64,000 nt of DNA, from the NCBI GenBank assembly GCA_021801225.1, contig JAJYYF010000011.1:6113-70112 (forward strand), read 5' to 3'. A program made the position numbers and the translations under genes. Origin of the DNA: Candidatus Micrarchaeota archaeon. Lineage in GTDB: Archaea > Micrarchaeota > Micrarchaeia > Micrarchaeales > CABMGC01. Below the pieces are notes generated by a model, which was not told the origin of the DNA, did no database searches, and saw only the letters and a list, made by a program, of their open reading frames with translations. Shown piece after piece: positions 15,847-60,258 of the stretch (positions are counted from its first letter, which is position 1; each line of letters starts with the position of its first letter).

Positions 15847-15885
15847 ATTTTTATATTAAATCTACATATTTTGAAAACTCAATAA

Positions 15886-16755: not shown

Positions 16756-16767
16756 TTGATCACTTAG

Positions 16768-18891: not shown

Positions 18892-18970
18892 TTGAACGCT
18901 TAAATATAAAAATATATGTTTTGTAGTTAATAAATTAATTTAAAATAGAAATAATACCTAAAATAAAGTT

Positions 18971-19043: not shown

Positions 19044-19089
19044 AGGTTATTCTTAATTATATGTATAATTTAATATTTAAATATTAAGT

Positions 19090-21267: not shown

Positions 21268-21405
21268 GGGGTTGTGGCGTAATTTGGCAGCGCGGCAGGC
21301 TCCAGATGTTTAAAAAATCTTTGAGCTATAAGCTGTGATGAAGATCTGGAAATTTGAAAAATATGAAGTAACCTGCACGTCCGGGTTCAAATCCCGGCAA
21401 CCCCA
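21268..21405 (+). tRNA. tRNA-Trp (anticodon CCA) with a ~65-nt intron at the canonical 37/38 position
   Basis: Hand-folded. Acceptor GGGGTTG/CAACCCC; D arm GCGT-AATTTGGCA-GCGC; anticodon stem GCAGG (21295-21299) / CCTGC (21372-21376); loop CTCCAGA with CCA at 21302-21304; T arm CCGGG-TTCAAAT-CCCGG. Intron about 21306-21370; mature length 73. Confidence 0.85.
21335..21357 (+). ncRNA. C/D-box-like guide module inside the tRNA-Trp intron
   Basis: GUGAUGA (21335-21341), a 12-nt spacer AGAUCUGGAAAU, then UUGA (21354-21357). The spacer's AUCUGGA pairs with 21301-21307 (UCCAGAU), placing C34 opposite the 5th nt upstream of the D-like box. Confidence 0.45.
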
Positions 21406-33037: not shown

Positions 33038-33143
33038 TGCCGTTGGTCGGATTTGAACCGACGACATTTCGGTGTCTGAATTACTCAAACTTTTCATAAG
33101 TTTGTCTTCAGCCGAACGCTCTCCCGGACTGAGCTACAACGGC
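33038..33143 (-). tRNA. tRNA-Phe (anticodon GAA) with a 32-nt intron at 37/38
   Basis: Hand-folded. Acceptor GCCGTTG/CAACGGC; D arm GCTC-AGTCCGGGA-GAGC; anticodon stem TTCGG/CCGAA; loop CTGAAGA; T arm GTCGG-TTCAAAT-CCGAC. The intron (about 33105-33074) has a CAAACTT/AAGTTTG hairpin, and TTCAG pairs with the anticodon loop (relaxed BHB). Confidence 0.85.
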
Positions 33144-45286: not shown

Positions 45287-47984
45287 TAACAGTTACATTG
45301 TGAGATTTAATGTAATCTGGATTGCTGACATTTACTGCTACTTTCGCACCCATTATTGTTGTATTGTATAATGAAAATCCTTTTCCAGAGTCAATTATTG
45401 GATATGTAAAGCCAACGAGATAACAGTTTGATATTGTTACTCCAGTAGTATTTATGTTAGCAAATGTTCCTCCATTTGTTGCATATATTGTATGACCACG
45501 GCAGTTTATCACTGTGTTGTTTGTTATTTTTCCATTTTCATTGTTTATAACATAACAAGTATTTCCATAAGAGTAAACCATATCGCTTTGGAAGCTAACA
45601 AATCCAGAGTTTGCAAAATTAAAGCAGGATTCGGTAGAATCAGGATTGATTGAAACTAACCAAGGACAACCTGATTTTTTAATACCAGTGTTTATGTTCA
45701 TTTTATTAGAAATTAGATTTTCTCCTGCTCCGCAATAATAATCTTGTTGGAAGTTGCTTAGCGCTTTATTTCCAGATACATTGTCATTTGATGAATTAGA
45801 AATACTGAAACCATAAACAGGATTACTGTTTCCAACATTTCCTACTACTTTACTTTCGGTAACATTATTCAATGCAAAACCAGTTGCATTGAAAAGACCG
45901 CTGCTTGCAACATCATTTTCAATTGAGATCTGTTTTCCATTTGTTATTGAAATTCCATATAATCTAAATGCGGATATCTTTACATTTCCAATTGAGCTAT
46001 CAGTTACATTTTTATAAACTGATCCTTGTGATACTTCAGATATTGTAGTATTTTGTAGATCTAGATTATTGAGATTTGATGCGTAAATTCCGTAATCATA
46101 ACTTTGAATTTGACAGTCTGAAATACTAACATTGCTGTTGCCATTATCAATTATACCATATCCATTATTTGTCCCGCTAATCAATTTATTATTACAATTT
46201 AATTTTACATCTGGAGCTTTTATTGATATACAACTTCCACTTGATGTTAAGTTTTGATTTATTTGGTATGTTCCAGGAATTGATATTGTTTGACATAATG
46301 TTATTGGGATAGTTTGAAGTGGGGGTGGAAGTTGTTTAGTACAAGTATTAAATGCGAATTGACACTCAGTACTTACGCAACTTGAGTTATAAATACTAGC
46401 AACTGATGAAGAGTTGTAGGTACTAGCTGGACAGTATATATCTCCTGCAAGATTATTTTTAGTATTAATTTTATTGTAAACATTTGAGTTACCTTTGTCT
46501 AAATATTGGCCATATAGATTACCAGATGTTGTTACATTTTGTATAACAAAGCCTATGCTTTGATTTTCATAAACTCCGAATTGATTATTGTTTGATATAG
46601 AGTTGCTCAACAAACCAGAGGTAGAGTTCTTAATATAAACACCGTAATTACCTTGAGTTGCGGTTATATTGAATAAGTTCGTGTTTATAGAGCCATTTAC
46701 AAATAAACCATATGTATTGTATTTAAGATCACAGTTTTCTACAGTTGTATTGTAAAGATCTTTTAAGTATATTCCATAATAAGAACTGACTATTGTTTTA
46801 CCGTTACAATTAAGTTTAACATTAGGCGCAGTTATTGTTATGCAAGGATAACTAGATGCACCTTTAGTATAATCACTTAAGTTGAGATTTTGCAAAATTG
46901 TGTAAGTACCATAGCTATCTATTGCACCACAAGTGTTAATGTCCTTTGATAACTTTACATTTTCTATACTATAATAATTATTTGAGCTACAAGTTGCAAA
47001 GTTACAGAGTTGATTATTTTGACATGTTGTTTTTGAGAAGTTATTTGTGTTCTTTGTATTAGCATTTGAACCACAGATCAAATCAGTAGGATTTTGCAAA
47101 AATGTATCTCCATAAAAGTTATTGCCAGTACTGTTTACATACAAGCCATAATATGCATTATTTATAAATGAAGTTCCAGAGAACAAATTACTTGTTCCAC
47201 TGTTGATATTAACGCCTCCGGAATTACTTTGAGAACCATATATTGTATTGTTTATTATTTTATTGTGAGAAGAGTTGTTCAAAAACATGTTAGATAATGT
47301 AGAATTTGATAAATACAAATCAGTTAAGTTGTTGTTATTTGAGTTCTTTAAATACAAGGAGTAAGAAAATCTTGAAACATTAAGCTTATTTATTGAAACA
47401 TTTGAAACTCCGGAAAGTAATATCCCATAAGTGAATGGTGCAACATCTATGTATGGACCACTTCCTTTTAAGTGATAGTTGTTTCCATTTATTATGACAT
47501 CACTTGAAAGTACTTCTATACAGCTTCCACTTTTAATTGATGTAGTTATATTACCAGTTACTGTGTAAATACCAGGTTGATTTATTACAGTACATGAGCT
47601 TAAATCCTTTGATTGAAAACTAGCAACTGTTGTCGTAGAGTTCGATGAAGTTTGAGTTGTTGTAGTGGATTGATTTGAAGTAATTGAGTGTAAATAAGGG
47701 AAAGAAAATACAAACGCAACAAGTATTATCCCTATTATTGGTATAATATAAAATTTTTTTCGTATTTTTTTATTATTGTTTTGTTGTGGTTGTTGTGCTT
47801 GAGTTTTATTATTAGCATTGTTATTTTTATTTGGATTATTATTAGTAGGAGCAACAGTAGAAGTGGTAATATTGCCTGAGTCACTAACATTGTTATTACC
47901 CGTATTATTACTATTATTAAACTGAGATTTATTTTGGTTATTAATAGTTGATTTTTGATTACTATTTGTGGGATTGTCTGCCAT
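45279..47984 (-). CDS. Surface protein with right-handed parallel beta-helix repeats, an N/Q-rich N-terminal tail and a signal anchor
   Basis: 901 aa. About 75 aa of N/Q/T low complexity, TM IIPIIGIILVAFVF, then repeated units of the NosD/PbH1 type (CxxIxxxGxYxLxxNL...CIxIxAPxVxLNCNG, seen twice) with many cysteines. Confidence 0.6.
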   Translation of the reverse strand: MADNPTNSNQKSTINNQNKSQFNNSNNTGNNNVSDSGNITTSTVAPTNNNPNKNNNANNKTQAQQPQQNNNKKIRKKFYIIPIIGIILVAFVFSFPYLHSITSNQSTTTTQTSSNSTTTVASFQSKDLSSCTVINQPGIYTVTGNITTSIKSGSCIEVLSSDVIINGNNYHLKGSGPYIDVAPFTYGILLSGVSNVSINKLNVSRFSYSLYLKNSNNNNLTDLYLSNSTLSNMFLNNSSHNKIINNTIYGSQSNSGGVNINSGTSNLFSGTSFINNAYYGLYVNSTGNNFYGDTFLQNPTDLICGSNANTKNTNNFSKTTCQNNQLCNFATCSSNNYYSIENVKLSKDINTCGAIDSYGTYTILQNLNLSDYTKGASSYPCITITAPNVKLNCNGKTIVSSYYGIYLKDLYNTTVENCDLKYNTYGLFVNGSINTNLFNITATQGNYGVYIKNSTSGLLSNSISNNNQFGVYENQSIGFVIQNVTTSGNLYGQYLDKGNSNVYNKINTKNNLAGDIYCPASTYNSSSVASIYNSSCVSTECQFAFNTCTKQLPPPLQTIPITLCQTISIPGTYQINQNLTSSGSCISIKAPDVKLNCNNKLISGTNNGYGIIDNGNSNVSISDCQIQSYDYGIYASNLNNLDLQNTTISEVSQGSVYKNVTDSSIGNVKISAFRLYGISITNGKQISIENDVASSGLFNATGFALNNVTESKVVGNVGNSNPVYGFSISNSSNDNVSGNKALSNFQQDYYCGAGENLISNKMNINTGIKKSGCPWLVSINPDSTESCFNFANSGFVSFQSDMVYSYGNTCYVINNENGKITNNTVINCRGHTIYATNGGTFANINTTGVTISNCYLVGFTYPIIDSGKGFSLYNTTIMGAKVAVNVSNPDYIKSHNVTVIN

Positions 47985-48080
47985 AAAACTACCGATATTT
48001 CAAAGATTATTTATATTGTATAATTTAAATATGTTTATATATGAAAGCAATAATTATATTCTAGGAGATAAACGATAAAT

Positions 48081-48191
48081 GCTCCGGTAGCTCAGTAGTA
48101 GAGCGCTTGTCTCGTAAAAACTTTTAATAAAAGTTTTATAAAAAATAATCGAGAGAACAAGAGGTCGAGGGTGCGATTCCCTCTCGGGGCT
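48081..48191 (+). tRNA. tRNA-Thr (anticodon CGU) with a 39-nt intron at 37/38; serves as the integration target
   Basis: Hand-folded. Acceptor GCTCCGG/TCGGGGC; D arm GCTC-AGTAGTA-GAGC; anticodon stem CTTGT/ACAAG; loop CTCGTAA; T arm GAGGG-TGCGATT-CCCTC. The intron (about 48117-48155) gives a clean BHB: CTCG/CGAG 4-bp helix plus an AAAACTTTT/AAAGTTTT hairpin. Confidence 0.8.
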
Positions 48192-48194
48192 AAT
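48179..48194 (+). repeat. attL core (direct repeat CCCTCTCGGGGCTAAT)
   Basis: Covers the T-stem 3' strand, the acceptor 3' strand, the discriminator and 3 nt beyond. Identical copy at 58324-58339. Confidence 0.8.
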
Positions 48195-48258
48195 AACTTA
48201 TTGTAGTAATACCCCCTTCAGTAAAGGTTTAAATATCTTTACTTTTATATACTTAACG

Positions 48259-49512
48259 GTGCTTTCAATGTCGAGTGAAACCGCTTTTACGAAGAAGAAG
48301 CAGAGAGGCATGAAGCCTCTTGAAGTTATTATTGGAAGGAAACAGCAGATGATATTAGATGGGTTCTATGCCTACCTCAAGGCTAATGGTAGAGGAGAGA
48401 GGACAATGTTCAGGCATGTTTACTGCCAGAGGAGGTGGCTTACCTATGCTGGTGAAGACTTTGATTATGAAACAGCCACTAAACAGCAGATTGAGAGCAT
48501 AGTGGGTAAGGTAAGGTCTGATAGTAAATTAGCTCCAGCGACAAAGAATAAGATACTGATAAGCATAAAACTGCTCTATAAGTGGCTTCTCGGTGATGGA
48601 GAAGAGTATCCCAAGCAGGTTAGATGGATTAAGGCTAATATTGGTAAGGAAAAGAAGATTACATCAGCAGAGATTTTAACGGAGAATGAAGTTATTAAGA
48701 TGATTAAAAGCACAAAAAAGGCTAATCTTAGAGATCGTGTAATAATTGCTTTGCTTTGGGATACTGGAATGAGGATAGGAGAGTTGCAGAACCTACGGAT
48801 AAGGGATATTGATATAACTTCTGACCAGAATGGTGTTTCACATGTTACAATCCCATTAGAAGGAAAGACAGGAACAAGGCAAGTACCTATCTTTATGTCA
48901 GTGCCTTACATCCTTGATTATCTGCAAGAGATGGGTGATATGGGTAGAGATGCTTATTTACTCAATTATTATGAAGGCAGATGGGCAGATATGAAGATGA
49001 AAGGAGTGCTTGATGGTAATGCAATCCGTAAAATGTTAAGGGTAACAGCCAAACGTGCTGGTATAGAAAAGAGAATATATCCTCACTTATTTAGGCATTC
49101 TCGTGCAACTTACTACGCCAATAGGATGACTGAACAGCAATTAAAATCCTTCTTTGGCTGGACTCCGACTTCAGGCATGGCAGGACATTATACACATCTA
49201 TCAGGTAGGGACATTGATTCTGCTGTTGCTAAAGCTAACAATCAGGAAGTAGAAGAGAAGATTGCTCCTGCCCTTGTCAATAAGGTTTGCCAAAGATGCC
49301 ACACAAAAAACGCAATAACCGCAATATACTGTAATGTATGTACTTTGCCTCTTGACATAAGCCAATTAGAAAAGGTTAGACAAGAACAACAGAAAGAATT
49401 AGCTCGTAGTTTGGTATTAGAGATTACACAAAATCCTGATGCTTTGAAGAATTTATTGGGGAATGTAAAGTTAAGTAAGGCAGATAAAAAGCGACTTCTT
49501 GAAACATTGTAA
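48259..49512 (+). CDS. Tyrosine recombinase/integrase with a C-terminal zinc ribbon
   Basis: 417 aa. TGMRIGELQNLRIRDI (Arg I), HLFRHSRATY (HxxR), GHYTHL (catalytic Tyr region) and CQRCH...CNVC. Confidence 0.85.
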   Translation: MLSMSSETAFTKKKQRGMKPLEVIIGRKQQMILDGFYAYLKANGRGERTMFRHVYCQRRWLTYAGEDFDYETATKQQIESIVGKVRSDSKLAPATKNKILISIKLLYKWLLGDGEEYPKQVRWIKANIGKEKKITSAEILTENEVIKMIKSTKKANLRDRVIIALLWDTGMRIGELQNLRIRDIDITSDQNGVSHVTIPLEGKTGTRQVPIFMSVPYILDYLQEMGDMGRDAYLLNYYEGRWADMKMKGVLDGNAIRKMLRVTAKRAGIEKRIYPHLFRHSRATYYANRMTEQQLKSFFGWTPTSGMAGHYTHLSGRDIDSAVAKANNQEVEEKIAPALVNKVCQRCHTKNAITAIYCNVCTLPLDISQLEKVRQEQQKELARSLVLEITQNPDALKNLLGNVKLSKADKKRLLETL

Positions 49513-49557
49513 TCATAACCCATAAATGCTTTAAAGACACTATAATTTAGTGATTTT

Positions 49558-50010
49558 ATGACGACAAATACAAAACAGATAGCGGAGCAGAGGAAAAGAG
49601 TACCTACAGAGAGTGAGTTAAACAAGATGATGGGCTGGAAACCTAAACTGCCAGAGTTTCCTGAGAATATACAGATAGCAGTACATAGTGCGAAAAATTT
49701 TGCTACCAATATGATTGGATACTCCAAGCTACTTCGTATTGGTGAATATGGTAAACTAAGTAAAAAGCAGAGGGATACACTGGGAATTGTAGTCGAAGAA
49801 GGAGATTATTTGATAGCAAGTCTAACAGAACTGTCCGATTTGGTGTATAAATATAAGAGGCAAAATAAAAATAAAGAGATAAAGGAGCACATGATAGACA
49901 TAGGCATTATCTGTGAATGGTTCTTGAGGTATGAAAAGTTATCAAAGAAGGAGAAAGATATGATGAGGTCTATAAAGAAAAATGCTGATGATGCAAGGAA
50001 GTTGATATGA
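49558..50010 (+). CDS. Element-encoded hypothetical protein
   Basis: 150-aa intact ORF 45 nt after int. Helical. Only a faint resemblance to a HisKA-like dimerisation helix pair (HSAKNFATNMIGYSKLL...LTELSDL). Confidence 0.4.
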   Translation: MTTNTKQIAEQRKRVPTESELNKMMGWKPKLPEFPENIQIAVHSAKNFATNMIGYSKLLRIGEYGKLSKKQRDTLGIVVEEGDYLIASLTELSDLVYKYKRQNKNKEIKEHMIDIGIICEWFLRYEKLSKKEKDMMRSIKKNADDARKLI

Positions 50011-50259
50011 TGACAAAAATAACCACTATTTTACTCAGTATTATAGACAAGACCTCTTATTTTACAGAGAGTAAAAACCAAAATCTTTGGTCTAGACACT
50101 TATTTCTTGAAGGGTATAAATGTCGGGTTGAGATATGATAACACGTTTTAGCCCCATTTGCAAGCGTCCTAAGAGGGTATCCAGAGCCTCAAAAGAGGTC
50201 TTCCAAGCCTGAGAGGATACCTCAAACAGTTATAGAAGGGGTTAAAGGGGGGATTAAGC

Positions 50260-50526
50260 CTATATCTTCTCTAGCTTCTTAACGATCTCCTTTCCCTTCT
50301 TTGAGATTATGTAGGCATTCATGTATCTCCTCTCAGTCTTAAGAGGTACAATCTCAATAAGTCCATACTTTAGTAGTCTTGATAGCTTAGAGGATAAAGT
50401 CATCTCACTTCTCACATACTTCTTAAGCTCCACAAATCGCTTAGGCTCATTTTCTAAGGCATGAAGTATATCCAAGACATAAGGTTGTAGGACTATTCTT
50501 ATTATGTCCAGCTTACTCTCTACCAT
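50260..50526 (-). CDS. Winged-helix transcriptional regulator (small, ArsR/HxlR-like)
   Basis: 88 aa. ILHALENEPKRFVELKKYVRSEMTLSSKLSRLLKYGLIE is a wHTH pattern. Confidence 0.6.
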   Translation of the reverse strand: MVESKLDIIRIVLQPYVLDILHALENEPKRFVELKKYVRSEMTLSSKLSRLLKYGLIEIVPLKTERRYMNAYIISKKGKEIVKKLEKI

Positions 50527-50660
50527 AATAGTTTGATAGGAAATACTTATATTCTACTTATTGGAACTAGGAGTAAGCTATTGATAACTGGAGTATGCTC
50601 TTTAGCCATATAGCAAGTAATAAAATACTTAGTGTGTTAGACATAGTTAGAGGTTTATAG

Positions 50661-51167
50661 GTGGCAGGAGATGCAGCAGAGGATATTGTAAATGTTTGGT
50701 TAAATGAAAAAGGTTACTTTACTAGACGAAACATAAAAGTTGGTAGAAAAGAGATAGATTTATTAGGCATCAATAAGGAAGGTAAAGGAGTCCATGCTGA
50801 AGTTACAGTTTCAATAAATCCTTTTACCAAAAACATAGCTAAAGAAAGAAAACAGACAAGAGATTTTTATACAAAAAAATTCAAGGACAAAGAAATTACA
50901 GACAAAATTCATGAATTACTCGGACGACATAAGAAATATCAAAAATGGATCATTCTTGGTATCAAAGAAAGTAAAAGAAAGACTGAGAAGGAGAAGAAGA
51001 AGAATAGAGAAAAATGGAGAAAAGTTTGGAAAAATCGAGGTAAAGTTAAGGAAGTTCGTTTTATGGATGAGGTATTAGAAGAGATAGATTTCAAAGAAGT
51101 ACCACAGGATTATGCGAGTAACTTTATTATGATACTTAAGAAATATGATAAGAAGGCTACTACTTGA
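50661..51167 (+). CDS. Putative PD-(D/E)xK-fold nuclease (Hjc/YraN-like core) with a K/E-rich C-terminal extension
   Basis: 168 aa with a GTG start. GDAAEDIVNVWLNEKGYFTRRNIKVGRKEIDLLGI...VHAEVTVS follows the G..aE..v..yL...G......g..EIDli....VEVK layout. Confidence 0.45.
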   Translation: MAGDAAEDIVNVWLNEKGYFTRRNIKVGRKEIDLLGINKEGKGVHAEVTVSINPFTKNIAKERKQTRDFYTKKFKDKEITDKIHELLGRHKKYQKWIILGIKESKRKTEKEKKKNREKWRKVWKNRGKVKEVRFMDEVLEEIDFKEVPQDYASNFIMILKKYDKKATT

Positions 51168-51852
51168 CTAACTCTATCAATCCATCAAGCCTACTGCAAT
51201 CTTTACAGCCATCTACTCCATCAGGTATCTTTACACTAGAGTATATCTTCTCAGCTTTCTCAAGCAGCTTTTCAACCTCAGCAGTATCTTTCTTTATCTT
51301 GTGTATTTTAGGCAAGAAAGGCATCTCAAAACCCCCATCAGTAGTATGCTTGCTGGATAACTCATCAAATCTCTCCTTATATGGAGGCTCAAAATAGATT
51401 AAGAAAAGGTCTTTTACTGGCTTATTGCCCATAGCTTCTGAAATGTAAGCATATCCATTAAGCTGGATTTGGTATATTGGCATGAACTCTCCTTGACTTC
51501 CTGTATATTTGGCGGTCTTATAATCGGCTATAACGAAGCTATCGTCAGGTCTCTGAAAAAGCAGGTCTGGGATGCCTGTAAGCATCATGTCTCCTTTTAC
51601 CACCTTAAACTCAGAAGGCTTGATGCTTACGATTCTCCTTACCTCTCCTATCTCTTCTAGCCATGCTGGTAGCTCTCCATTCCTCTCAAAGTATTTCTCA
51701 ACAATATGTTTAGTATAGGTGTCAATAGAGGAGAAAATGCCGGGAAAACCCATCTGATAAGGGAGGCCTTTGGCGTGCCTCTCTATCCAGAAGCATCTAG
51801 GACAGAAGCTAGACTCTTTAAGCCATCCTAAGTCCTTTGCTGAGATACGCAT
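51160..51852 (-). CDS. Cas4/RecB-like PD-(D/E)xK nuclease with flanking Cys pairs
   Basis: 230 aa. GIPDLLF...FVIADYKTAKY (D...D/ExK), QLNGYAYI (QxxxY), CPRC near the N-terminus and CKDC near the C-terminus. Its 3' end overlaps the convergent 168-aa gene by 8 nt. Confidence 0.7.
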   Translation of the reverse strand: MRISAKDLGWLKESSFCPRCFWIERHAKGLPYQMGFPGIFSSIDTYTKHIVEKYFERNGELPAWLEEIGEVRRIVSIKPSEFKVVKGDMMLTGIPDLLFQRPDDSFVIADYKTAKYTGSQGEFMPIYQIQLNGYAYISEAMGNKPVKDLFLIYFEPPYKERFDELSSKHTTDGGFEMPFLPKIHKIKKDTAEVEKLLEKAEKIYSSVKIPDGVDGCKDCSRLDGLIELVK

Positions 51853-51972
51853 ATAAACAAAGTTAATCTAGGCACTAAGATATATAAAATTGTAGGAACA
51901 TATACAGTACACAAAATGCGTAAGGCAACGCTATACAAATAGCCAACTATTTCTGGGTGGAATTTATAAGAT

Positions 51973-52974
51973 TTGCGGTTCTATCTGTTAGCGTATGCTT
52001 TAAATAGTTTAGAATGGTGTTTATTTATGGGAAAACAAGTGGTTGATACATCAATGTCAAACTTAACACATCAATTCACAAATCTTGCAGGAAAAGATGG
52101 TGTGACTATGAAAGATATATTATTGCAAAGTATAAAAAATACAAAAAAGGAATTAATTGGGAATAATAATGGATATCATTTTTTGATAACTGGCAATTCT
52201 ACTGACATATTAAAAAAACTGCCAGATGATAGCATAGATTTGATAGTTACAGATCCGCCCTATAACAAAGGCTTGGATTACGGTTCGTATTATAATGATA
52301 ATAAAGCATGGAAAGACTATTTTGTAGAAATGAAAATGTGGCTAATCGAAGCCAATCGAGTTCTTAGAAAAACAGGCACATTGTATCTAATAAGCTATCC
52401 TGAGATTAATGCTCGCCTATTGCCATTTATAGAAGATGAATTAGCTCTTAAATTTAGGAGATGGATTACATGGCATTATCCAACAAATATAGGGCATTCA
52501 AAGAAAAATTTTACAAGAAGTCAGAGATCAATATTATTTTTCACCAAAAGTAATAACTATGTATTCAACGAGGAAAACATAATTCAACCTTACAAGAACC
52601 CAACAGTTGCTAAAATAAAGGAAAGAATTAGGCTTGGATCGAAAGGTAGGCATTCCTATGATCTATTAAATCTTTTAGATATGATTGAGCTAAATAAAGA
52701 TATGATAGATGTTATAGATATAAATTTATTAAAAAACGTGTCTAAAGATAGATTCAATAAAAAACACCCTTGTCAATTACCTTTGTCTCTTTTAAGAATA
52801 TTAGTTAAAGTGAGTAGCAATAAAAATGATGTTTTATTAGATCCATTTGCAGGAACATTTACTCTTTCTGCAGTTGCAAAAGAACTGGGAAGAAATTCTA
52901 TAGGGATAGACTTAAATCCTCAGTATGTTAAATTAGGATTGAAGCGACTGAAAACAAACCAGGTACTTCTATGA
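51973..52974 (+). CDS. DNA amino-methyltransferase (N6-adenine or N4-cytosine), beta-class motif order
   Basis: LIVTDPPYNKG (motif IV) precedes LDPFAGTFT (motif I). The likely real start is the ATG at about 52027 (MGKQVV). Confidence 0.85.
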   Translation: MRFYLLAYALNSLEWCLFMGKQVVDTSMSNLTHQFTNLAGKDGVTMKDILLQSIKNTKKELIGNNNGYHFLITGNSTDILKKLPDDSIDLIVTDPPYNKGLDYGSYYNDNKAWKDYFVEMKMWLIEANRVLRKTGTLYLISYPEINARLLPFIEDELALKFRRWITWHYPTNIGHSKKNFTRSQRSILFFTKSNNYVFNEENIIQPYKNPTVAKIKERIRLGSKGRHSYDLLNLLDMIELNKDMIDVIDINLLKNVSKDRFNKKHPCQLPLSLLRILVKVSSNKNDVLLDPFAGTFTLSAVAKELGRNSIGIDLNPQYVKLGLKRLKTNQVLL

Positions 52975-53144
52975 ACACAATTAAAGAATACATAACAAAT
53001 AGCAAGGAGCTTACTCAGAAGGAGAAATCTCTAATTCAAAAAATGTATGAGAATACACTTATACATGAAAGTGATGCTGATCTGGAAAGTATATTAGACC
53101 AACTTCTAGAAAAAAATATTAAGGAAGATGATAGTAATGAGTAG
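52971..53144 (+). CDS. Untracked 57-aa ORF bridging the methyltransferase and the ATPase
   Basis: MNTIKEYITNSKELTQKEKSLIQKMYENTLIHESDADLESILDQLLEKNIKEDDSNE. Its ATG overlaps the MTase TGA (ATGA), and its end overlaps the ATPase start by 17 nt. Confidence 0.4.
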   Translation: MNTIKEYITNSKELTQKEKSLIQKMYENTLIHESDADLESILDQLLEKNIKEDDSNE

Positions 53145-55038
53145 AGAAATTGTGGCAATGGAAATTAAAAATTTCAGGCCATTTCACGATGTAAAATTAG
53201 AATTTAAAGAGGGAAAGAAAAACAAGTTAATTTCATTTGTTGGAACTAATAGATTTGGAAAATCAAATTTACTTAATGCAATATTGTGGTGTTTATATGG
53301 AGATGAAGCAATAAAATATAGTGCAGATTCAGATAAGCACGTTCTCAAAAATGAACGTTATGTAAATGAAAGGACAGAAGTATCTTTAACGTTTAATGAT
53401 AGTCATATAGTGAAAAGAGCTGAAAATAGTTTTACTGTTCTTAAAAAGGAATCAGGAAATAAATACCAGAGTGTTGATAGCCCAGAGATCTATATAAGAA
53501 ATAATCTTCTACCACAAGATATTAGCAAGTTCTTTTTGTTTAAAGGCGAATTTCTTGATTCGTTTTTTGAAAAACAAAACGGGCAAGCACTTAAAGAAAC
53601 AATCCTTAATGTATCTGGTATAGACACTTTAGAAAGAATGAGTAAAACGCTAGAGGATCTTAAAGAAAGATACAGACAGGACATTTCAAAAGTTGATAGA
53701 AATAATCAAGATTTAGAATACTTACAAAAACAGATAGATATCTATTCACAAAGTACTGCTGTATTAGATTCAGATATTAAGCGTATTGATGGTATCCTAA
53801 CCTATGACACTCAACGATTAAATGAAATAGCTAAACAATTGAGAAGTAGAAATATTGATAAGATAACAGAGATTATTGAGCAAGAACAAATGTATAAGAA
53901 AGATGTAGAAAGTCTGAATGACGATATAAAAGAACTTCGAAATAAGATATTTATAAGATTTTTTGGGGAACTATCTCCATGGTTTATATATAATGCAAAT
54001 AAGAAGTTTAAGAAGCACTTACAGCATTTAGTTGAAACAGGAAGAATCCCATTACCCGCAGAACCTAATTTAATTGAGAAAATATTTGAGGACAACAGAT
54101 GTATCTGTGGTTGTAAAATGAACTCAGCTATGAAAGCACAATTAACTAACCTGCTAAAAAAACTAAAAGAAGACAGTCCCAAAGCCAACCAACTACATAG
54201 AATTAATGTACTTTTATCTGTTGATACTTCTAAGTTTAATAATGCAAATAAAGAGCTTAAGAAGTTACTAAGTGACAAAACTGAGAAGGAGAAAAGAATA
54301 AAAGAAGTAAATGAAAAATTAAAAGTTGCCTCTGAAAGTATAAAAGGTCTAAATAAAGCAGATGTAACTAAGCTACAGGCTGAAAAGGAAACTTTAAATG
54401 AAGATATTGGAAAACAAAATGCATTAAGAGATCAGAAAATTAGTGATTTGACCAGAGCAAAGGATATGAAGGCTAAATTTGAATCTGATTTTAGTAAGAT
54501 GGCTACTAAGTCGTCAAAAAGTAAATCTTTAGCAGAAAAACTTCAAAGAGTAGTGCTGTTAAATGAAAAGATGATTAAACTAATAAGTGAAATATCTGAA
54601 GATATATTAAGAAAGTTAAATAATAATACTCAAAAATACTTCAAAGACATCTTCTGGAATAACTACAAGTACATGAATTATAATGTCAAAATAGATAAAG
54701 AATTTAATGTTACTCTCATGTCGCCTGAAGGGAATAATATGTTAGCTTTAGCTTCGACAGGAGAAACTAAAGTTCTAGCATTATCATTTATGTCAGCCCT
54801 ATCTGCTTATTATGGTTTTGATTTCCCTTTGATTATTGATGCCCCATTTTCTGCACTTGATCCAGATGTTATTTTAAAGGTTTTAGAGGCATTAAAAGAA
54901 CTATCTAAAGATAGTCAGATATTGGTATTGACAACTCGTCATGATGTAAATGTAATGCGGGAGCTAAAGAAAGTATCCTTAGATAACTTTATGTTAGATA
55001 AAGATGCTAAGGATAATACTATAATTAAAAAGATATGA
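53128..55038 (+). CDS. SMC/DndD-like ABC-type ATPase with a long coiled coil and a central Cys cluster
   Basis: 636 aa. IKNFRPF...GTNRFGKSNLLNAILWCLYG (Walker A), FLFKGEFLDSFF, about 400 aa of K/E/L-rich heptad-like sequence, CICGC at residues 325-329, STGETKVLALSFMSAL (signature-like) and PLIIDAPFSALD (Walker B). Confidence 0.75.
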   Translation: MIVMSREIVAMEIKNFRPFHDVKLEFKEGKKNKLISFVGTNRFGKSNLLNAILWCLYGDEAIKYSADSDKHVLKNERYVNERTEVSLTFNDSHIVKRAENSFTVLKKESGNKYQSVDSPEIYIRNNLLPQDISKFFLFKGEFLDSFFEKQNGQALKETILNVSGIDTLERMSKTLEDLKERYRQDISKVDRNNQDLEYLQKQIDIYSQSTAVLDSDIKRIDGILTYDTQRLNEIAKQLRSRNIDKITEIIEQEQMYKKDVESLNDDIKELRNKIFIRFFGELSPWFIYNANKKFKKHLQHLVETGRIPLPAEPNLIEKIFEDNRCICGCKMNSAMKAQLTNLLKKLKEDSPKANQLHRINVLLSVDTSKFNNANKELKKLLSDKTEKEKRIKEVNEKLKVASESIKGLNKADVTKLQAEKETLNEDIGKQNALRDQKISDLTRAKDMKAKFESDFSKMATKSSKSKSLAEKLQRVVLLNEKMIKLISEISEDILRKLNNNTQKYFKDIFWNNYKYMNYNVKIDKEFNVTLMSPEGNNMLALASTGETKVLALSFMSALSAYYGFDFPLIIDAPFSALDPDVILKVLEALKELSKDSQILVLTTRHDVNVMRELKKVSLDNFMLDKDAKDNTIIKKI

Positions 55039-55042
55039 TTTT

Positions 55043-55444
55043 ATGGAACTTGATAAGCCACCTAGAGATATAACAGTATCTGAAGGAGATAGAGAGAAAT
55101 ACTCATGGCTGAGCACAAAATTTAATTTAGAAGTAAAGCAGATATTTTTGCTAGCAGTTAAAGTTGGGTTTTTTTATGGTCTAAGAGACAAAGTAAAAAA
55201 TCACAGATCAATTGCTCAATTTTCAACTTTTTCAGATGATGATATTAAAGATATGATCACTATAGCTTATGCAGAATTAGAGAGTGATAGTGCGATATTC
55301 GATGGTAAAAAAGTTGTTGGAATATGTGAAGAATATGCTACTGGCGGAATTTCAAAGTTATACAAACAATTTGCAGGAGCAAATAAAGAGGATGTGAAAA
55401 TAATTGAAGATATGGTAGACGAATTAGCAAATGAAGTTAAGTAA
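55043..55444 (+). CDS. 133-aa partner protein of the ATPase (unknown; possibly a dnd-associated small-protein family)
   Basis: Starts 4 nt after the ATPase stop. IFLLAVKVGFFYG...ICEEYATGGISKL resembles a small protein family I recall near dnd/DndD-like genes. Unverified. Confidence 0.45.
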   Translation: MELDKPPRDITVSEGDREKYSWLSTKFNLEVKQIFLLAVKVGFFYGLRDKVKNHRSIAQFSTFSDDDIKDMITIAYAELESDSAIFDGKKVVGICEEYATGGISKLYKQFAGANKEDVKIIEDMVDELANEVK

Positions 55445-55445
55445 T

Positions 55446-57581
55446 TTACTTAAGTAGGTTATAAACATCACTTATATTGTAAAAACTAATGAGTTTTTGT
55501 AAATTATCATCACGAAAAATATCTCTTTTATTACTTGAATATTTTACAAATTCAAATGCTCTATTCAGTTCTTTTTTAAGAAGCTTTTGTTCTATCTCAA
55601 AAATACTAGCTTCTTTCTTTATTGCTGATAAACTAGCTACTGTAACAAAATCAAATATTTCAGCAACTTTAGTATCATCTGTTTTCCTAAGAACTCGTCC
55701 TCGTCTTTGTATATATTCTCTTGGATTAGCAGAACTCGCTAAAATTATTGCATTTTTTGCTTCTTTTATGTTTATCCCTTCATCCAGAACCTTTATTGAA
55801 AGTAGAATGTCAATATTCCCACTTCTAAAATCTTTAAGTATCTTGATCCTTTCTTCTCTACTTTCTTCACCTGTGATCTGAGAGTGAATAAATCTTAGGT
55901 CGTCTAATATCTCTTTGACGTCATTAAGTTGGTTCTTATCTATACAAAAGATAAGAGTATATTTTAACTTCTTTTCTTGATTTAGTAAATTAAGTACCTC
56001 TCTTAGACGATCTAGTTTATTCTCTGACGACTTTGTTATTTTTGACCTTTCAGTTAGAAGAAGTTTCAAGTAATCTTCATCCTCTTTACTTCTAAGGTAA
56101 TGAGATTTTTTATTTAACTTCTTAGTCAATTTTATATATTCATCAAACTCTATTGATGATAATTCTGTCAGTTTTATATAATAATTATAAGGGCATAGTA
56201 CATTGTCTTTTATCGCATCTCCTATACTATATCTAAAGACAATATTACCAAAAAATTCTTTTATAGCGTCCGTACCGCCAGCGTCAAATAATCTATCTGG
56301 AGTTGCACTTAAACCCAACCTATAGCTAAATAGTGTTTTTATTGATTCGTCCTTTAATATATCCTTACCTGTTTCGGATCCGAATGTGTGAACTTCATCA
56401 GCAATAACTAGTGCATTAGTTACTTTATAATTTTTAATATATTCAATCATATTAGCTAAACTATCGTACGTGCTGACTAAGACTATCCTTTTTGATCTGC
56501 CCTTTTTATGCTCATGCAATAAATTTTCAATATTTTTTCTCCATTGCTCCTTACTGCTTACTGACAAAAGATCGTCATAATCTTCATATGACTTTACATC
56601 GCTTATCCACTGGTCGCAAATCTCTTGTGTAGGTGCTAATATAACAGCAGTGCCAACTTTCGCTATATCAAAAAATGTATGAAGTGCCTTTAGCCCTACC
56701 CAAGTTTTACCTGTCCCTGTAGCCATTTCTATTATACCATTGAACTTTGCCTGACTCCAATTCTCTATAGACTTTTCTTGATATTTTCTTAGATTTAATT
56801 CGGCTTTTTGAATTATCTTAGATCCAACTTGTCTAGTTTCTACATTCCCTTCTAAAACATCAAAGTTTATCTCTTGCGAATCTTCCGGAGCTAATTTTAT
56901 AATTTTGGTTTTAATAGCTTCGTCCAATGCTACTACTGAAACTTTATCATATTTGTTCTCCCATAATCTAAAGAAATGTTCATTATCTGTATCAAAATAT
57001 TTCTTTTCTCTAGAATCCCATGCTTTAAAAACCTTAAATTCTTCTATATTGTGTAACCAACCTGCACCTGTTTCATTTATAGATCCACTAAAGGAGATAG
57101 CATTACCTTCAGTATCTTTTACTATACCTACCTTCTGATGAAATAATGCAGAAAACTCTTTGCCAGATTCTTTCTTAGGAAAGGCGACTTTTATCTCTAA
57201 AAGGTTATTTGCTAACATCCAAGCGAATGCTTTTATTGACTCCTTAATAAACAAGCTCTCAATTTTTTCATACTCGGCTAGGAGTTTATCAACTTCGTTC
57301 ATAATCAAATCAGGATACATTATAGCTTGTTCTGCTGCAGATATGTCTTCATTTTTAACAAAACAACCAGTTATTAGTTTTATTTTACCATCACTTTTAA
57401 TTAGTTCACTTACACCCTTCGCAGCTACGGCAAAAGAATCTGAAGAGAAGAAGCCAGTTATTCTGTAATACTCCTTGGCCACAGATAGAGTAGGTACATA
57501 GAATTCTTGTAAAACATTACTGTCCTCAGAAGAATATGCTGTTTTAAGAGATATATCTTTTAAAGATTTTGAAATAACCAT
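55446..57581 (-). CDS. Fusion of a PLD-family (single HKD) nuclease domain and an SF2 (ResIII/DEAD-like) helicase
   Basis: 711 aa. YRITGFFSS, HQKVGIVKD...FSGSINETGAGW (HxK..D...GSxN), MATGTGKT (motif I), VIADEVH (motif II), LSATP (motif III) and QRRGRVLR (motif VI). Confidence 0.8.
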   Translation of the reverse strand: MVISKSLKDISLKTAYSSEDSNVLQEFYVPTLSVAKEYYRITGFFSSDSFAVAAKGVSELIKSDGKIKLITGCFVKNEDISAAEQAIMYPDLIMNEVDKLLAEYEKIESLFIKESIKAFAWMLANNLLEIKVAFPKKESGKEFSALFHQKVGIVKDTEGNAISFSGSINETGAGWLHNIEEFKVFKAWDSREKKYFDTDNEHFFRLWENKYDKVSVVALDEAIKTKIIKLAPEDSQEINFDVLEGNVETRQVGSKIIQKAELNLRKYQEKSIENWSQAKFNGIIEMATGTGKTWVGLKALHTFFDIAKVGTAVILAPTQEICDQWISDVKSYEDYDDLLSVSSKEQWRKNIENLLHEHKKGRSKRIVLVSTYDSLANMIEYIKNYKVTNALVIADEVHTFGSETGKDILKDESIKTLFSYRLGLSATPDRLFDAGGTDAIKEFFGNIVFRYSIGDAIKDNVLCPYNYYIKLTELSSIEFDEYIKLTKKLNKKSHYLRSKEDEDYLKLLLTERSKITKSSENKLDRLREVLNLLNQEKKLKYTLIFCIDKNQLNDVKEILDDLRFIHSQITGEESREERIKILKDFRSGNIDILLSIKVLDEGINIKEAKNAIILASSANPREYIQRRGRVLRKTDDTKVAEIFDFVTVASLSAIKKEASIFEIEQKLLKKELNRAFEFVKYSSNKRDIFRDDNLQKLISFYNISDVYNLLK

Positions 57582-57632
57582 ATTAGTCCTCCATAATAAG
57601 ATAGGACTGAGAATCTTTAAATAATCGTCCGT

Positions 57633-58250
57633 TTAGGCAACAGTCGGCTTACTCTCTGGCTTTATTAGGGTATCAGAAGAGGGGGTTTGATTTGACCACC
57701 TAACAAACTTATTACACTCATCACGTATTGGTTTAATGTCGCCATTATGCACTTTTCCATTCTCTAGGCGAATGCCACAGCCACAATTAACAGGGTGCCT
57801 GCCTCCTATCTTACCTTGTGCCTTTGCTCTTTTAAGTCCAAGCATAGTCCTTTCATGGATTATATCCCTTTCAAAATTAGCCAGTAGTGCTAGGATATTA
57901 GCCATAAACCTGCCCATTGAAGTGCTTAAATCAATTCCTTCCTGTATAGAGAATAGGCTCTTGCCGTTTTTATTAAATTCTTCAAGTTCAAGGATCAGTT
58001 CGGATAAATTCCTGCCCCATCTATCAAGTTTCCATACTGCAACACCATCAATTTCGCCAAGCCTTAACTTCTTTAGGACTTCCTCTTTTCGAGGCCTTGT
58101 ATCCTTACTACTTACCTCATCAACATATTCTCCTTCAATTTCTACACCTGCCTTCTTTGACCATTCACGCAGGGCTATAAGCTGGTTCTCAGGGTTCTGT
58201 TCTAATGCCTTTGAAACTCTGGCATATAAAGCGACTCGCATGTAATCCAC
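57633..58250 (-). CDS. Serine recombinase (resolvase/invertase catalytic domain) with a Cys-containing C-terminal tail
   Basis: MRVALYARVSKALEQNPENQ (catalytic Ser), VWKLDRWGRN, and the E-helix ERTMLGLKRAKAQGK. The C-terminus NCGCG...C has no obvious HTH. Confidence 0.85.
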   Translation of the reverse strand: MDYMRVALYARVSKALEQNPENQLIALREWSKKAGVEIEGEYVDEVSSKDTRPRKEEVLKKLRLGEIDGVAVWKLDRWGRNLSELILELEEFNKNGKSLFSIQEGIDLSTSMGRFMANILALLANFERDIIHERTMLGLKRAKAQGKIGGRHPVNCGCGIRLENGKVHNGDIKPIRDECNKFVRWSNQTPSSDTLIKPESKPTVA

Positions 58251-58323
58251 TCAGTGTTATGTTCAAGACTTCTTGTAAAACCGATGTCAAAAACAGAGGC
58301 AAAGGTAACCGCTACTACGACTG

Positions 58324-58339
58324 CCCTCTCGGGGCTAAT
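58324..58339 (+). repeat. attR core (direct repeat CCCTCTCGGGGCTAAT)
   Basis: Identical to 48179-48194. The flanking bases differ on both sides. Confidence 0.8.
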
Positions 58340-58348
58340 TTAATAAAA

Positions 58349-58690
58349 TCAAATATTTACTTCGTTTATTTTTCTTATTGTTATAGGACCTGCTTTCATT
58401 TTGTAAGAAGGAGATTGTTTTGCTATCTCAATTGCTTCGTCCATATCGTTAGCAGTTATAATCATATATCCACCAAAATCGATTTTTTGTGGTTGGTAAT
58501 CTTCAACGCCAGTTTCAGTTAACATCTTCCCTTCCCATGAAACAGGATTTGCAGATACAAAAGTACCTTTTGCTTCTAACGGATATATATAATCACGCCA
58601 TGGCTTAGTCCCATTCTCAATTTGTTCAGGAGTAGGGTTATTAGGCATCTCCATCTTTTCATTATACATCAAAAATAAATATTTAGGCAT
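58349..58690 (-). CDS. YCII-related domain protein
   Basis: 113 aa. MPKYLFLMY start and GGYMIITANDMDEAIEIAKQSP, typical of YciI-like proteins. Confidence 0.55.
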   Translation of the reverse strand: MPKYLFLMYNEKMEMPNNPTPEQIENGTKPWRDYIYPLEAKGTFVSANPVSWEGKMLTETGVEDYQPQKIDFGGYMIITANDMDEAIEIAKQSPSYKMKAGPITIRKINEVNI

Positions 58691-58791
58691 GAAAATAATA
58701 ACCCTTATAAATTTAATAGATTGGTATGTAAATTCTTAGTGGATGTGTAAAACTTATAGTTCTTTTGAAATAATATTAATATGAGGTCAAT

Positions 58792-59262
58792 ATGAAGGTA
58801 TTATTTGTTTGTCGTTCTAATGCAGAAAGAAGTCAGGTTGCACAACTTTTATTTAATAAAACTTCAAAGAAAAATAATGCAAATAGTGCAGGTTTAGCAT
58901 TAGTGGATTTTGAAAAAGGACTAGCGCCAGGTAGGATAATGACAGAACTTATGCTTAGTCAGGGTTACAATGATTTTACAAAACAACATAGAAAACAATT
59001 AACTGAAGAAATGGCAAACGGCTCTGATAAAGTAATAGTAATTATGACAAGAGGACAAATTAGAGCTCTGTTGCCCCAATTTGTTAAAAAATCGGATAAA
59101 GTAGTTTACTGGGATAGGGTAAAAGACCCTAAAAATGATAAAGACAGAATAACGGCAAGAAATAAAATTAAAAAATTGGTAAACGCTCTTGTTAAAAATC
59201 TTGATAAAAAAATAAAAGTATACTTATTTTTGCAAAATATAAATATTTATATCTATAAATAA
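58792..59262 (+). CDS. Low-molecular-weight phosphotyrosine phosphatase / ArsC-like protein
   Basis: VLFVCRSNAERS matches the CX5R(S/T) P-loop. Confidence 0.7.
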   Translation: MKVLFVCRSNAERSQVAQLLFNKTSKKNNANSAGLALVDFEKGLAPGRIMTELMLSQGYNDFTKQHRKQLTEEMANGSDKVIVIMTRGQIRALLPQFVKKSDKVVYWDRVKDPKNDKDRITARNKIKKLVNALVKNLDKKIKVYLFLQNINIYIYK

Positions 59263-59291
59263 TAAGTAATAATGAAAGTTCTGGTAGTTAT

Positions 59292-59588
59292 ATGGTAAAG
59301 ATAAATGATGTTATTGAATCGCTTAAAAAAACAGTAGATCCAGAGATAGGATTAAACATAGTTGACCTTGGATTAATTTATGGAATAAATGTTACACAAC
59401 AAAATGATCTTGATATAAAAATAACTATGACAAGTCCTATGTGTCCCGTAACAAGCATAATACTTGCAGACGTACAGTTAAGAGCTGAGAGTATCGAAGG
59501 AATAGGAAAGGTAAATATAGACCTTGTTTGGGATCCCGCTTGGTCTCCTGAAATGATAACAGAAGAAGCAAGATTAGGTTTGCAATAA
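59292..59588 (+). CDS. DUF59/MIP18-family Fe-S assembly protein (SufT/PaaD-like)
   Basis: 98 aa. VDPEIGLNIVDLGLIY and MTSPMCPV. Confidence 0.75.
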   Translation: MVKINDVIESLKKTVDPEIGLNIVDLGLIYGINVTQQNDLDIKITMTSPMCPVTSIILADVQLRAESIEGIGKVNIDLVWDPAWSPEMITEEARLGLQ

Positions 59589-59628
59589 GTAAAATAAGAA
59601 TAAATTAAAAAAATAAATTAATTAATAA

Positions 59629-60189
59629 TCAAGAAAGTATTGATTCGTCGCATCTTTTGTATTTTTGTATTTCTGATTCAGTAAACCAAACAGTAATTTC
59701 TCTGTTTGCTGCTTCTTTATTTTCAGATACGTGAACTATATTTCTTATAGGTCTTTTTCCGGAGTCAGCTGCTCCGTATGTGTCATTTGAAAGAGATCCC
59801 CTAATTGTTGAAGGATCTGCTTTTCTAGGCTCTGTTGCACCCGCAAGCTTTCTTGCTACATCATTAGCAGCATTGCCTTCAAGAACCATTGCAACTATTG
59901 GACTTCGAGTTAATTCTTTGATTAAATGAGAACGTATTCTCATACCTATATCAATATCTTTTTCAGTTACAGGAAGTCCTTTCTCAATGTTTGATTGGTT
60001 TGCTTTTTTACCAACACTTATGAGCCATTCTTGATCCTCTGCATAATGAGTACCTGCTTGCTTTTCATTAGCTAGTATCATCTTTAATGCGACTACCTTA
60101 AGTCCTGCTCCTTCAAAACGAGATATGACCTTTCCTATCAAAGCTCTTTCTACTCCGTCTGGTTTTATTAAAACTAGTGCTCTTTCCAT
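59629..60189 (-). CDS. ndk: Nucleoside diphosphate kinase (with an internal insertion)
   Basis: ERALVLIKPDGV, GTIRGS-like TIRGSL and NIVHVSE (active-site His). At 186 aa it is longer than the usual ~150 aa. Confidence 0.85.
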   Translation of the reverse strand: MERALVLIKPDGVERALIGKVISRFEGAGLKVVALKMILANEKQAGTHYAEDQEWLISVGKKANQSNIEKGLPVTEKDIDIGMRIRSHLIKELTRSPIVAMVLEGNAANDVARKLAGATEPRKADPSTIRGSLSNDTYGAADSGKRPIRNIVHVSENKEAANREITVWFTESEIQKYKRCDESILS

Positions 60190-60258
60190 TATTTCACCAA
60201 GAGATTATTATTTATATTTTTATTCGGTAAATTATATAAGCATATTCTTGATGAGTTC

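Follow-up and report, generated by a model that had tools for sequence, protein, structure and literature searches.

A probable 10,145-bp integrative mobile element with a predicted methyltransferase–Pbe defence cargo in a tRNA-Thr(CGU) gene of Candidatus Micrarchaeota

A stretch of 64,000 nucleotides from a Candidatus Micrarchaeota archaeon (assembly GCA_021801225.1, contig JAJYYF010000011.1, positions 6,113 to 70,112 of the forward strand; the whole stretch is called the window below) contains a tRNA-Thr(CGU) gene, the 3' end of which is repeated perfectly some 10 kb downstream. The locus raises the question of whether the DNA between the two copies was integrated at the tRNA gene, as had been proposed in an original prediction made from the sequence alone, and, if so, by which enzyme and with which cargo. 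In the explanation favoured here, to which a probability of about 0.88 is given, the DNA is a 10,145-bp integrative mobile element of Ca. Micrarchaeota (DPANN), a "cryptic integrated element" that carries a methyltransferase–Pbe defence cargo and has entered tRNA-Thr(CGU) at its 3' end by means of a "classical" (non-split) XerA/pNOB8-like tyrosine integrase of its own.

The attachment site and its empty and occupied alleles

The 16-mer CCCTCTCGGGGCTAAT is present in exactly two copies in the window, at 48179–48194 (attL core) and at 58324–58339 (attR core), both on the + strand, and no further copy with up to two mismatches was found in the window. The sequences around the two cores are unrelated: the left one is preceded by GCGATT and followed by AACTTATTG, the right one is preceded by CGACTG and followed by TTAATAAAA. 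The perfect repeat with dissimilar flanks, on which the original prediction was built, was thereby reproduced by repeat count and by sequence. Two matches to CCCTCTCGGGGCTAAT were obtained in 0 of 100 dinucleotide-preserving shuffles, and the number of extra copies expected from base composition is 7e-7. Exact direct repeats of at least 16 nt number 12 in this AT-rich window and are hence not rare; the sole G+C-rich (62%) long-range pair among the 12 is CCCTCTCGGGGCTAAT. The core-to-core length of the element is 10,145 bp. The longest exact repeat of the window lies elsewhere and is a 30-nt direct repeat, TTGCTTGATGTACTATTATTTGTTTTTGTA, at 31105–31134 and 31165–31194 (spacing 60 nt).

The host gene and integration target, tRNA-Thr(CGU) (48081..48191, + strand), was recognised with Rfam RF00005 at 51.1 bits, and an identical tRNA stands at the empty site L021 described below. 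The RF00005 alignment places an insertion of 41 nt after the CGU anticodon, and the gene contains an archaeal intron of approximately 39 nt (about 48117–48155) at the canonical 37/38 position. In its default mode, run over the whole window, ARAGORN did not report a tRNA-Thr at 48081–48191, because the intron is present. Long introns are found in three of the five tRNA genes of the window (21268–21405, +; 33038–33143, −; and 48081–48191, +), and these three were detected by Rfam and missed by default ARAGORN. The attL core consists of the final 13 nt of tRNA-Thr and 3 nt beyond, namely the 3' strand of the T-stem (48179–83), the 3' strand of the acceptor stem (48184–90), the discriminator (48191) and the 3 nt that follow; this division, proposed earlier, agrees with the RF00005 alignment. 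The attL core restores the tRNA-Thr 3' end, and the final 30 nt of this gene are also found unchanged in L022:3866-3895 (a Woesearchaeota metagenome-assembled genome, MAG) and in L023:4879-4908 (a bin labelled Methanosarcinales), in tRNAs whose 5' halves and introns differ from those of the window tRNA-Thr; hence distant DPANN-like genomes, too, offer the attB core.

The proteins of the two host genes on either side of the repeats were looked up by exact match; this retrieved contigs from other assemblies, and each contig was mapped to the window. Two of them, L005 (ENA ERZ27237177 k141_555611) and L006 (JGI 3300039716 Ga0438459_0034914), carry an empty site (attB): their positions 1–288 correspond to window 58611..58324 with 100% identity, their positions from 273 to the end correspond to the window from 48194 downwards with 99.9% identity, and the two alignments overlap by precisely the 16-nt core. 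The order at these sites is tRNA-Thr, a single core and, directly, the flank beginning at 58340 (YCII gene). A third empty site with one core copy turned up when the 3' end of the tRNA was searched against single genomes representing each species; it is located in the Ca. Micrarchaeota MAG contig JAJZMZ010000020.1 (L021) and names the host lineage as Candidatus Micrarchaeota. The integrated element postulated at the tRNA-Thr(CGU) 3' end is supported by these three attB alleles, which come from independent assemblies. The identity of L021 to the window is 99.8% in the left flank (46674–48194) and 88% in the right flank (58324–61914), with the switch exactly at the att site; this asymmetry reflects either a strain recombination boundary or a chimeric MAG contig.

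Occupied copies were found in at least five other assemblies, including NCBI GCA_027340785.1, ENA ERZ27237183 and ERZ27237285 and several SRA runs, and JGI 3300039716 holds attB (L006) and attL (L010) together. Logan contigs (k=31) stop exactly at 48194 (L003) and at 58324, the first position of the attR core (L002), points at which a de Bruijn graph branches when both alleles are present. The host population thus holds occupied and empty alleles, and the difference between them is exactly the element and one copy of the 16-bp core. Across all copies of the element (48195–58323; L001, L011, L012, L013 and others, from different samples) no single-nucleotide polymorphism (SNP) was observed, and in the adjacent host flank up to 11 SNPs were counted in 3.7 kb, mostly in the aIF2/IF5B gene (60259–62031). 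An SNP-free element beside variable flanks would fit a recent arrival or spread, a suggestion tempered by the low local background diversity.

Integrase, backbone and cargo

The gene next to attL encodes a tyrosine integrase (48259..49512, + strand; Pfam Phage_integrase PF00589, 9e-19) of 417 aa when read from GTG 48259 or 414 aa when read from ATG 48268, with the start offset from the core by 65 or 74 nt, respectively; the distance of 65 nt given in the original prediction is that of the GTG. A candidate archaeal TATA box, TTTAAATA (48228..48235, + strand), is centred approximately 27 nt before GTG 48259, and a motif of this type was aligned at the same position in five loci of the integrase family. 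The position of this TATA-like box suggests that the integrase mRNA is leaderless, with a putative promoter function for the motif. The model XerA_Arch of NCBIfam (NF040815) was matched with 1.3e-26 and 93.7 bits against an equivalog cutoff of 220, and the nearest PDB entries are XerA 4a8e and 5hxy. The complete catalytic set (R169, K200, H273, R276, W298 and Y308) is invariant in 18 family members, as are C341, C344, C355 and C358 of a C-terminal CxxC...CxxC zinc ribbon that is not found in XerA. The integrase is related to XerA and is not XerA itself, because its score falls under the cutoff, its length is 414–417 aa versus about 290 aa, it has the extra zinc ribbon, and it belongs to a dispensable element. 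The family comprises 1261 members at E<=1e-5, the named ones being from Micrarchaeota and Marsarchaeota, and no relatives of the integrase were found in IMG/VR. The int gene is full-length in the integrated state and attP lies outside it, which places the enzyme with the "classical" and not with the SSV-type "suicidal" integrases.

In the proposed mechanism, a circular form carrying attP (58323–core–48195) would recombine with attB inside the 16-bp identity, the attP of this circle reading ...CGCTACTACGACTG-CCCTCTCGGGGCTAAT-AACTTATTGTAG..., and excision would proceed by the reverse reaction. The element is modular, with a backbone of higher G+C content (integrase, the 150-aa hypothetical protein, the winged-helix protein, two PD-(D/E)XK nucleases and the resolvase, all described below) bracketing a putative cargo slot with a G+C content like that of the host.

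Behind the integrase gene lie a gene for a hypothetical 150-aa protein (hyp150; 49558..50010, + strand), which yielded no family match, no close homologue in a database of 5.8 billion proteins and only a sub-threshold HisKA match, its sole homologue being the copy in L025 (see below), and a 43-aa open reading frame (ORF; 50007..50138, + strand), which is called in public annotations and has no family match. An 88-aa winged-helix (HxlR/MsvR-like) DNA-binding protein is encoded at 50260..50526 (− strand; Pfam HxlR, 8.2e-5) and may be a regulator or a directionality factor of the element. The 168-aa protein encoded at 50661..51167 (+ strand) was an orphan at first look, yet it has 316 remote relatives, which match UPF0102, Mrr_cat, NERD and MTES_1575 weakly and in which D33 and E47 are invariant. 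In the AlphaFold2 model (pLDDT 89) an alpha-beta-beta-beta-alpha-beta core is predicted, and the top PDB neighbours in Foldseek (best E 1.9e-3) are NucS/EndoMS, Shedu SduA, SfsA and restriction enzymes; the protein is assigned to the PD-(D/E)XK fold class (NucS/YraN-like) and to nothing finer. A 230-aa Cas4/RecB-like PD-(D/E)XK nuclease follows at 51160..51852 (− strand; Pfam PDDEXK_1, 1.6e-9; PADLOC Cas4, 5.6e-8), with the motifs PD..DYK and QxxxY and the cysteines C17, C20, C216 and C219. At the other end of the element, 82 nt from attR, stands the gene for a 202-aa small serine recombinase of the resolvase/invertase type (57633..58241, − strand; Pfam Resolvase, 3.2e-37), the nearest PDB entries of which are a Gin-type invertase and gamma-delta resolvase. 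Its catalytic domain is intact (YARVS with Ser10 present); in its C-terminal 50 aa no helix-turn-helix domain was detected, and CGCG...C is found there instead. This enzyme may act as a multimer resolvase. A search for internal repeats in the element (res, inversion or arm sites) returned AT-rich chance matches only.

The cargo begins with a beta-class N6/N4 DNA methyltransferase (52027..52974, + strand; Pfam N6_N4_Mtase, 9.7e-46; PADLOC MTase_II, 5e-55) with DPPY at aa 76, followed by a 57-aa acidic protein (52971..53144, + strand), which overlaps the start of the next gene and was placed as PbeB by position and size alone; it matched no model, including those of PADLOC. PbeB has been described as a small, rapidly evolving protein (PMC10853773). 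The next gene encodes PbeC, a DndD-like CxC-type ABC ATPase (53137..55038, + strand; PADLOC PbeC, 3.1e-66; TIGR03185 DndD, 1.1e-28); it has a Walker A motif, and its zinc hook, CICGC, lies centrally at aa 325 of 636. A 133-aa protein in the position of PbeD, the DndE cognate (55043..55444, + strand), gave a weak match to TIGR04062 dnd_assoc_4 (E 0.0014), a weak precomputed match to PF27807 and no PADLOC match. Convergent to pbeBCD lies pbeA (55446..57581, − strand), which encodes an HKD (PLD-family) nuclease fused to an SF2 helicase (PADLOC PbeA, 5.6e-198 over aa 6–686; TIGR04095, 358 bits); Pfam ResIII and Helicase_C and, weakly, PLDc_2 were matched, and the motifs HQK..D..GSIN, GTGKT and DEVH (helicase I and II) are present. 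Of the four Pbe components, the HKD nuclease–SF2 helicase of PbeA and the ABC ATPase with CxC of PbeC were recognised, and the genes in the PbeB and PbeD positions are candidates. The recombinases, nucleases, winged-helix regulator and "defence-like cassette" that the original prediction had described inside the repeats were recovered with Pfam and PADLOC; the description of the cassette is now refined to a methyltransferase-linked Pbe system.

Genes for DndA, DndC and DndE were found neither in the element nor elsewhere in the window, to which this search was confined; the N6/N4 methyltransferase adjoins the cassette instead. By its gene content, the cargo is judged not to be a Dnd–Pbe system that depends on phosphorothioation. 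PbeABCD together with DndCDEA phosphorothioation has been shown experimentally to restrict a haloarchaeal virus (PMC6459918), and PbeABCD was later re-described as a CxC-ABC ATPase/DndE-anchored system (PMC10853773). Methylase-linked Pbe was noted computationally in both papers, without experimental test (PMC6459918, PMC10853773): 155 of 320 solitary PbeAC pairs lie near a methyltransferase, and C5 and N4-cytosine methylases were reported (PMC6459918, PMC10853773). As a working analogy, the cargo would be a system like restriction–modification (R-M) with methylation as the self mark. By analogy with DndCDEA–PbeABCD and in line with the published predictions, the slot content (an m6A-type methyltransferase, PbeB-C-D and the convergent PbeA) might mark host DNA by methylation, with an ABC-ATPase/DndE scanner and an HKD-helicase effector restricting unmarked invaders; a benefit of such defence to the host would explain the persistence of the element.

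The G+C content rises from 29% to 40% at 48.2 kb and falls from 40% to 30% at 58.4 kb. Within the element it amounts to 37.1% in the left backbone (48195–51999), 30.4% in the 5.6 kb of cargo (52000–57600) and 41.2% in the right backbone (57601–58323), compared with 30.4 ± 1.7% (maximum 36.2%) in 3.8-kb windows of the host. The left backbone therefore exceeds every host window of equal size, and the tetranucleotide distance is 2.7–3.9 standard deviations above the host mean in this left block only. Earlier hand counts on three 60-nt lines were right (48%, 47% and 23%), and the composition break drawn from them held in part: the steps are present and the backbone is atypical, but the cargo, at 30.4%, equals the host. 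The break belongs to the backbone and not to the entire element, which is a mosaic. Another part of the window, 13534–18891, contains three large ORFs (770, 289 and 707 aa) without a Pfam match, and the 707-aa ORF falls within the strongest tetranucleotide outlier of the window (16.5–18.5 kb, G+C up to 39%), contains short tandem repeats of the GTTGTTGGAGTT type near 18100–18260 and adjoins tRNA-Gln (18970–19044); no integrase was found near this outlier.

At all nine loci of the integrase family the integrase lies 62–180 nt after a tRNA 3' end and in the same orientation. The integrase of L024 (71% identical) follows directly after a tRNA 3' end with the same CCCTCTCGGGGCT and a similar arm; in L026, L027, L029, L030 and L032/L033 the integrase starts 62–75 nt after the tRNA, and at the start of L025 a tRNA 3' end precedes the integrase by 150 nt. 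The genes beside these integrases belong to MmeI-type R-M (L025, L027 and L029) or type I R-M (L026), or encode an AAA_14 ATPase (L030) or, in L032/L033, a Dam-like methyltransferase, Cas1-Cas2-Cas4 and a Cas12f-like gene. The last of these loci (L032:9856-17147 from JGI 3300039716 and L033:2864-10155 from GCA_027363715.1), where the integrase is 41% identical and starts 75 nt after the tRNA, has the gene order integrase, Dam-like methyltransferase, Cas1, Cas2, Cas4 and a 610-aa Cas12f/TnpB-like gene; it resembles a compact type V CRISPR-Cas locus that is part of an integrase-linked island, in a different Micrarchaeota-like genome of the same environment.

Of these loci, L025 alone has the backbone in common with the element; in L025 the winged-helix protein is 97%, the Cas4-like nuclease 96%, the resolvase 74%, the 168-aa protein 65% and hyp150 60% identical (aa), and the nucleotide identity to window 50110–51999 is 86%. 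L025 differs in its integrase (just 45% identical), its tRNA target and its cargo, which is an MmeI-type R-M system. The shared block ends at 51999, exactly at the onset of the cargo with host-like G+C content. The region from the nuclease gene to the resolvase gene may thus be a slot for cargo, a lead from two elements and not a rule. In the L025 resolvase (10679–11143) the ATG is replaced by ACG preceded by TAG, and approximately 50 C-terminal aa are gone; this truncated gene is apparently in decay, next to backbone genes that are 96–97% identical to their window counterparts. A resolvase without start codon and C-terminus implies that the enzyme is not needed to maintain the integrated state.

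Observations at odds with the simple picture, and rival explanations

Several results weigh against the explanation favoured here. The contig L019 (ENA ERZ27237177 k141_1125076) joins the window at 58336 with its positions 1–140: the right arm of the element and the first 13 nt of the core are followed by 127 nt of foreign, non-coding sequence (TTCTCACTCATAGTAATGAACC..., 36% G+C) where an attR flank or attP arm would be expected; the empty site L005 is from the same sample. This foreign flank gave 0 matches in JGI metagenomes and IMG/VR and none among the fetched loci, and it contains no long ORF. It could mark an insertion of the element in a second host or at a second site, or a tandem neighbour element; a second host or site is thinkable because the last 30 nt of the tRNA are common to L022 and L023. 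Six Logan contigs from six SRA runs (L013–L018) all stop at 58309, 15 nt before the attR core, and the contig end predicted for a mixture of attB, attL and attR is 58353. One of them, L013, covers 48165–58309, that is 10,145 nt, the same as the core-to-core distance. An SNP at 58310 was ruled out as the cause of the breaks, as no copy differs there, and another sequence in the samples of L013–L018 must share 30 nt near 58309. Neither L019 nor the breaks at 58309 fit a simple attB/attL/attR picture. The attP junction itself was not met with: the right arm with the core gave 0 matches in JGI metagenome contigs, and the core with the left arm gave 0 matches in IMG/VR; these searches were confined to contigs and not raw reads, and circularisation is therefore not refuted by them. 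To these points are added that PbeB and PbeD were assigned by position and weak matches only, that the host-like G+C content of the cargo would not by itself flag this part as foreign, that no replication, conjugation or virion gene was recognised in the element with Pfam, PHROGs and NCBIfam, and that no second element with tRNA-derived repeats on both sides was found in L025–L033 within the available flanks.

A rather unlikely alternative refines the explanation given above rather than opposing it: the element could be a provirus, a virus satellite or an integrative plasmid of unrecognised type, with replication or packaging functions hidden in hyp150, the 43-aa ORF or the nucleases, or with helper-dependent transfer. 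Several genes are without assigned function, Cas4-like nucleases and winged-helix proteins occur commonly in viruses and plasmids of archaea (PHROG matches), and novel plasmids or viruses are suspected behind many of the cryptic integrated elements of archaea (PMC6563490). Against this, no capsid, portal, terminase, Rep, primase, helicase-replicase or conjugation ATPase was detected by Pfam, PHROGs and NCBIfam in the element, and no relative was found in IMG/VR.

An old and now immobile island, from which the empty alleles would have arisen by chance deletion between the 16-bp repeats (slippage or homologous recombination, without the integrase), is very improbable. It would account for the attP circle missing from the JGI metagenome contigs and IMG/VR and for the unrecognised transfer genes. 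It is opposed by the intact integrase, by 0 SNPs in 10 kb across samples with differing flanks, which argues for a recent arrival, by the coincidence of the repeat with a tRNA 3' end beside an integrase, as in all nine family loci, by the foreign composition of the backbone and by the joining of the same right arm to a different sequence in L019. Relatives carrying the 10 kb without the repeats were not found, and the composition discontinuity is there; the original prediction would have fallen with the former or without the latter.

A role of the serine recombinase, in place of the tyrosine integrase, as the mover of the element or its cargo was considered and rejected as scarcely credible. 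Its gene does adjoin attR (58241 versus 58324) and is kept at the same end of L025, and the six Logan contigs break in its upstream region. The enzyme, however, is a small resolvase/invertase of 202 aa and not a large serine integrase; a 16-bp identity within the 3' end of a tRNA, next to a tyrosine integrase, is the classic signature of a tyrosine recombinase (PMC8371274); in L025 the gene is without its start codon and C-terminus; and seven other family loci have the tRNA–integrase layout without a resolvase. That the insertion or the empty site is an artefact of assembly or binning, conceivable in that all data are metagenomic assemblies and that L021 with its unequal flanks (99.8% versus 88%) might be chimeric, is a negligible prospect, since MEGAHIT assemblies at ENA, JGI, Logan (k=31) and NCBI MAGs, the work of different assemblers and projects, yielded the same junctions, and since k=31 or k=141 graphs cannot be collapsed by a repeat of 16 nt.

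Relation to known systems and significance

The element is judged to be real and probably recently mobile, and its kind is well known; its host is a tiny symbiotic archaeon of a little-studied group, the Micrarchaeota. With the archaeal "classical" type II (pNOB8/SNJ2/XerA-like) elements (PMC8371274) it shares an int gene that is intact after integration, an attB that is the rebuilt tRNA 3' end, a short direct repeat and a catalytic domain closest to archaeal XerA. XerA itself differs from the integrase, which reaches 94 bits against the cutoff of 220 and has an invariant C-terminal 4-Cys zinc ribbon and a basic tail, both absent in XerA. The 2021 review of these elements (PMC8371274) contains no mention of DPANN, Micrarchaeota, Marsarchaeota or "zinc". 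The cryptic integrated elements of Thaumarchaeota (Krupovic et al. 2019, PMC6563490) are likewise integrase-bounded islands in tRNA genes, intron-containing ones included, mostly below 20 kb, with no recognisable virion or conjugation genes, often no recognisable replication protein, and R-M and other defence cargo. The present element is unlike them in its DPANN host, its integrase family, its second (serine) recombinase and the backbone shared with at least L025 around a swappable cargo.

The DndCDEA–PbeABCD system of Haloterrigena jeotgali (Xiong et al. 2019, PMC6459918; Aravind lab, PMC10853773) is matched strongly by the cargo in PbeA and PbeC, and small genes in the B and D positions flank PbeC in the same order, B-C-D. 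The cargo departs from it in the lack of adjoining dndCDEA and the presence of the DPPY N6/N4 methyltransferase instead, in the convergent pbeA and in being carried on a mobile element. Bacteria, too, have tRNA-integrated defence islands and integrative mobilisable elements that combine a tyrosine integrase at a tRNA 3' end, a backbone with variable defence cargo and presence/absence polymorphism; here, in contrast, the host is archaeal, and no relaxase or oriT-type mobilisation genes are recognisable. Particular to the present case are the DPANN host, the zinc-ribbon integrase family, two recombinase classes on one element, the methylase-coupled Pbe and the population evidence of presence and absence.

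Mobile elements of DPANN archaea have barely been described, and their hosts are hard to grow or manipulate. An exactly delimited and apparently intact 10-kb element with known attB, attL and attR, of which occupied and empty alleles coexist in nature, provides a concrete substrate for work on DPANN integrases and a candidate integration vector for Micrarchaeota co-cultures. Its cargo is a natural example of a methyltransferase-coupled Pbe, a pairing predicted computationally, and the comparison with L025 (shared backbone, other cargo) shows the movement of complete defence systems between reduced genomes. R-M and CRISPR are reported to be under-represented in DPANN (PMC12988326), and this scarcity makes mobile carriers of some interest.

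A wider reading, possible though advanced with less than even confidence, is that of a modular Micrarchaeota "defence carrier" family with a conserved backbone (zinc-ribbon integrase, winged-helix protein, two PD-(D/E)XK nucleases and serine recombinase), one exchangeable defence slot (methylase–Pbe here, MmeI-type R-M in L025) and an att/integrase module that would be swapped separately to retarget tRNAs, with the element itself presumably spreading at present through a natural population and perhaps reaching a second site or host (L019 junction). An action of the serine recombinase in the exchange of cargo or site might then account for the break at 58309. If this were true, such carriers would bring immunity of the R-M type into a lineage in which R-M and CRISPR are reported to be scarce (PMC12988326).

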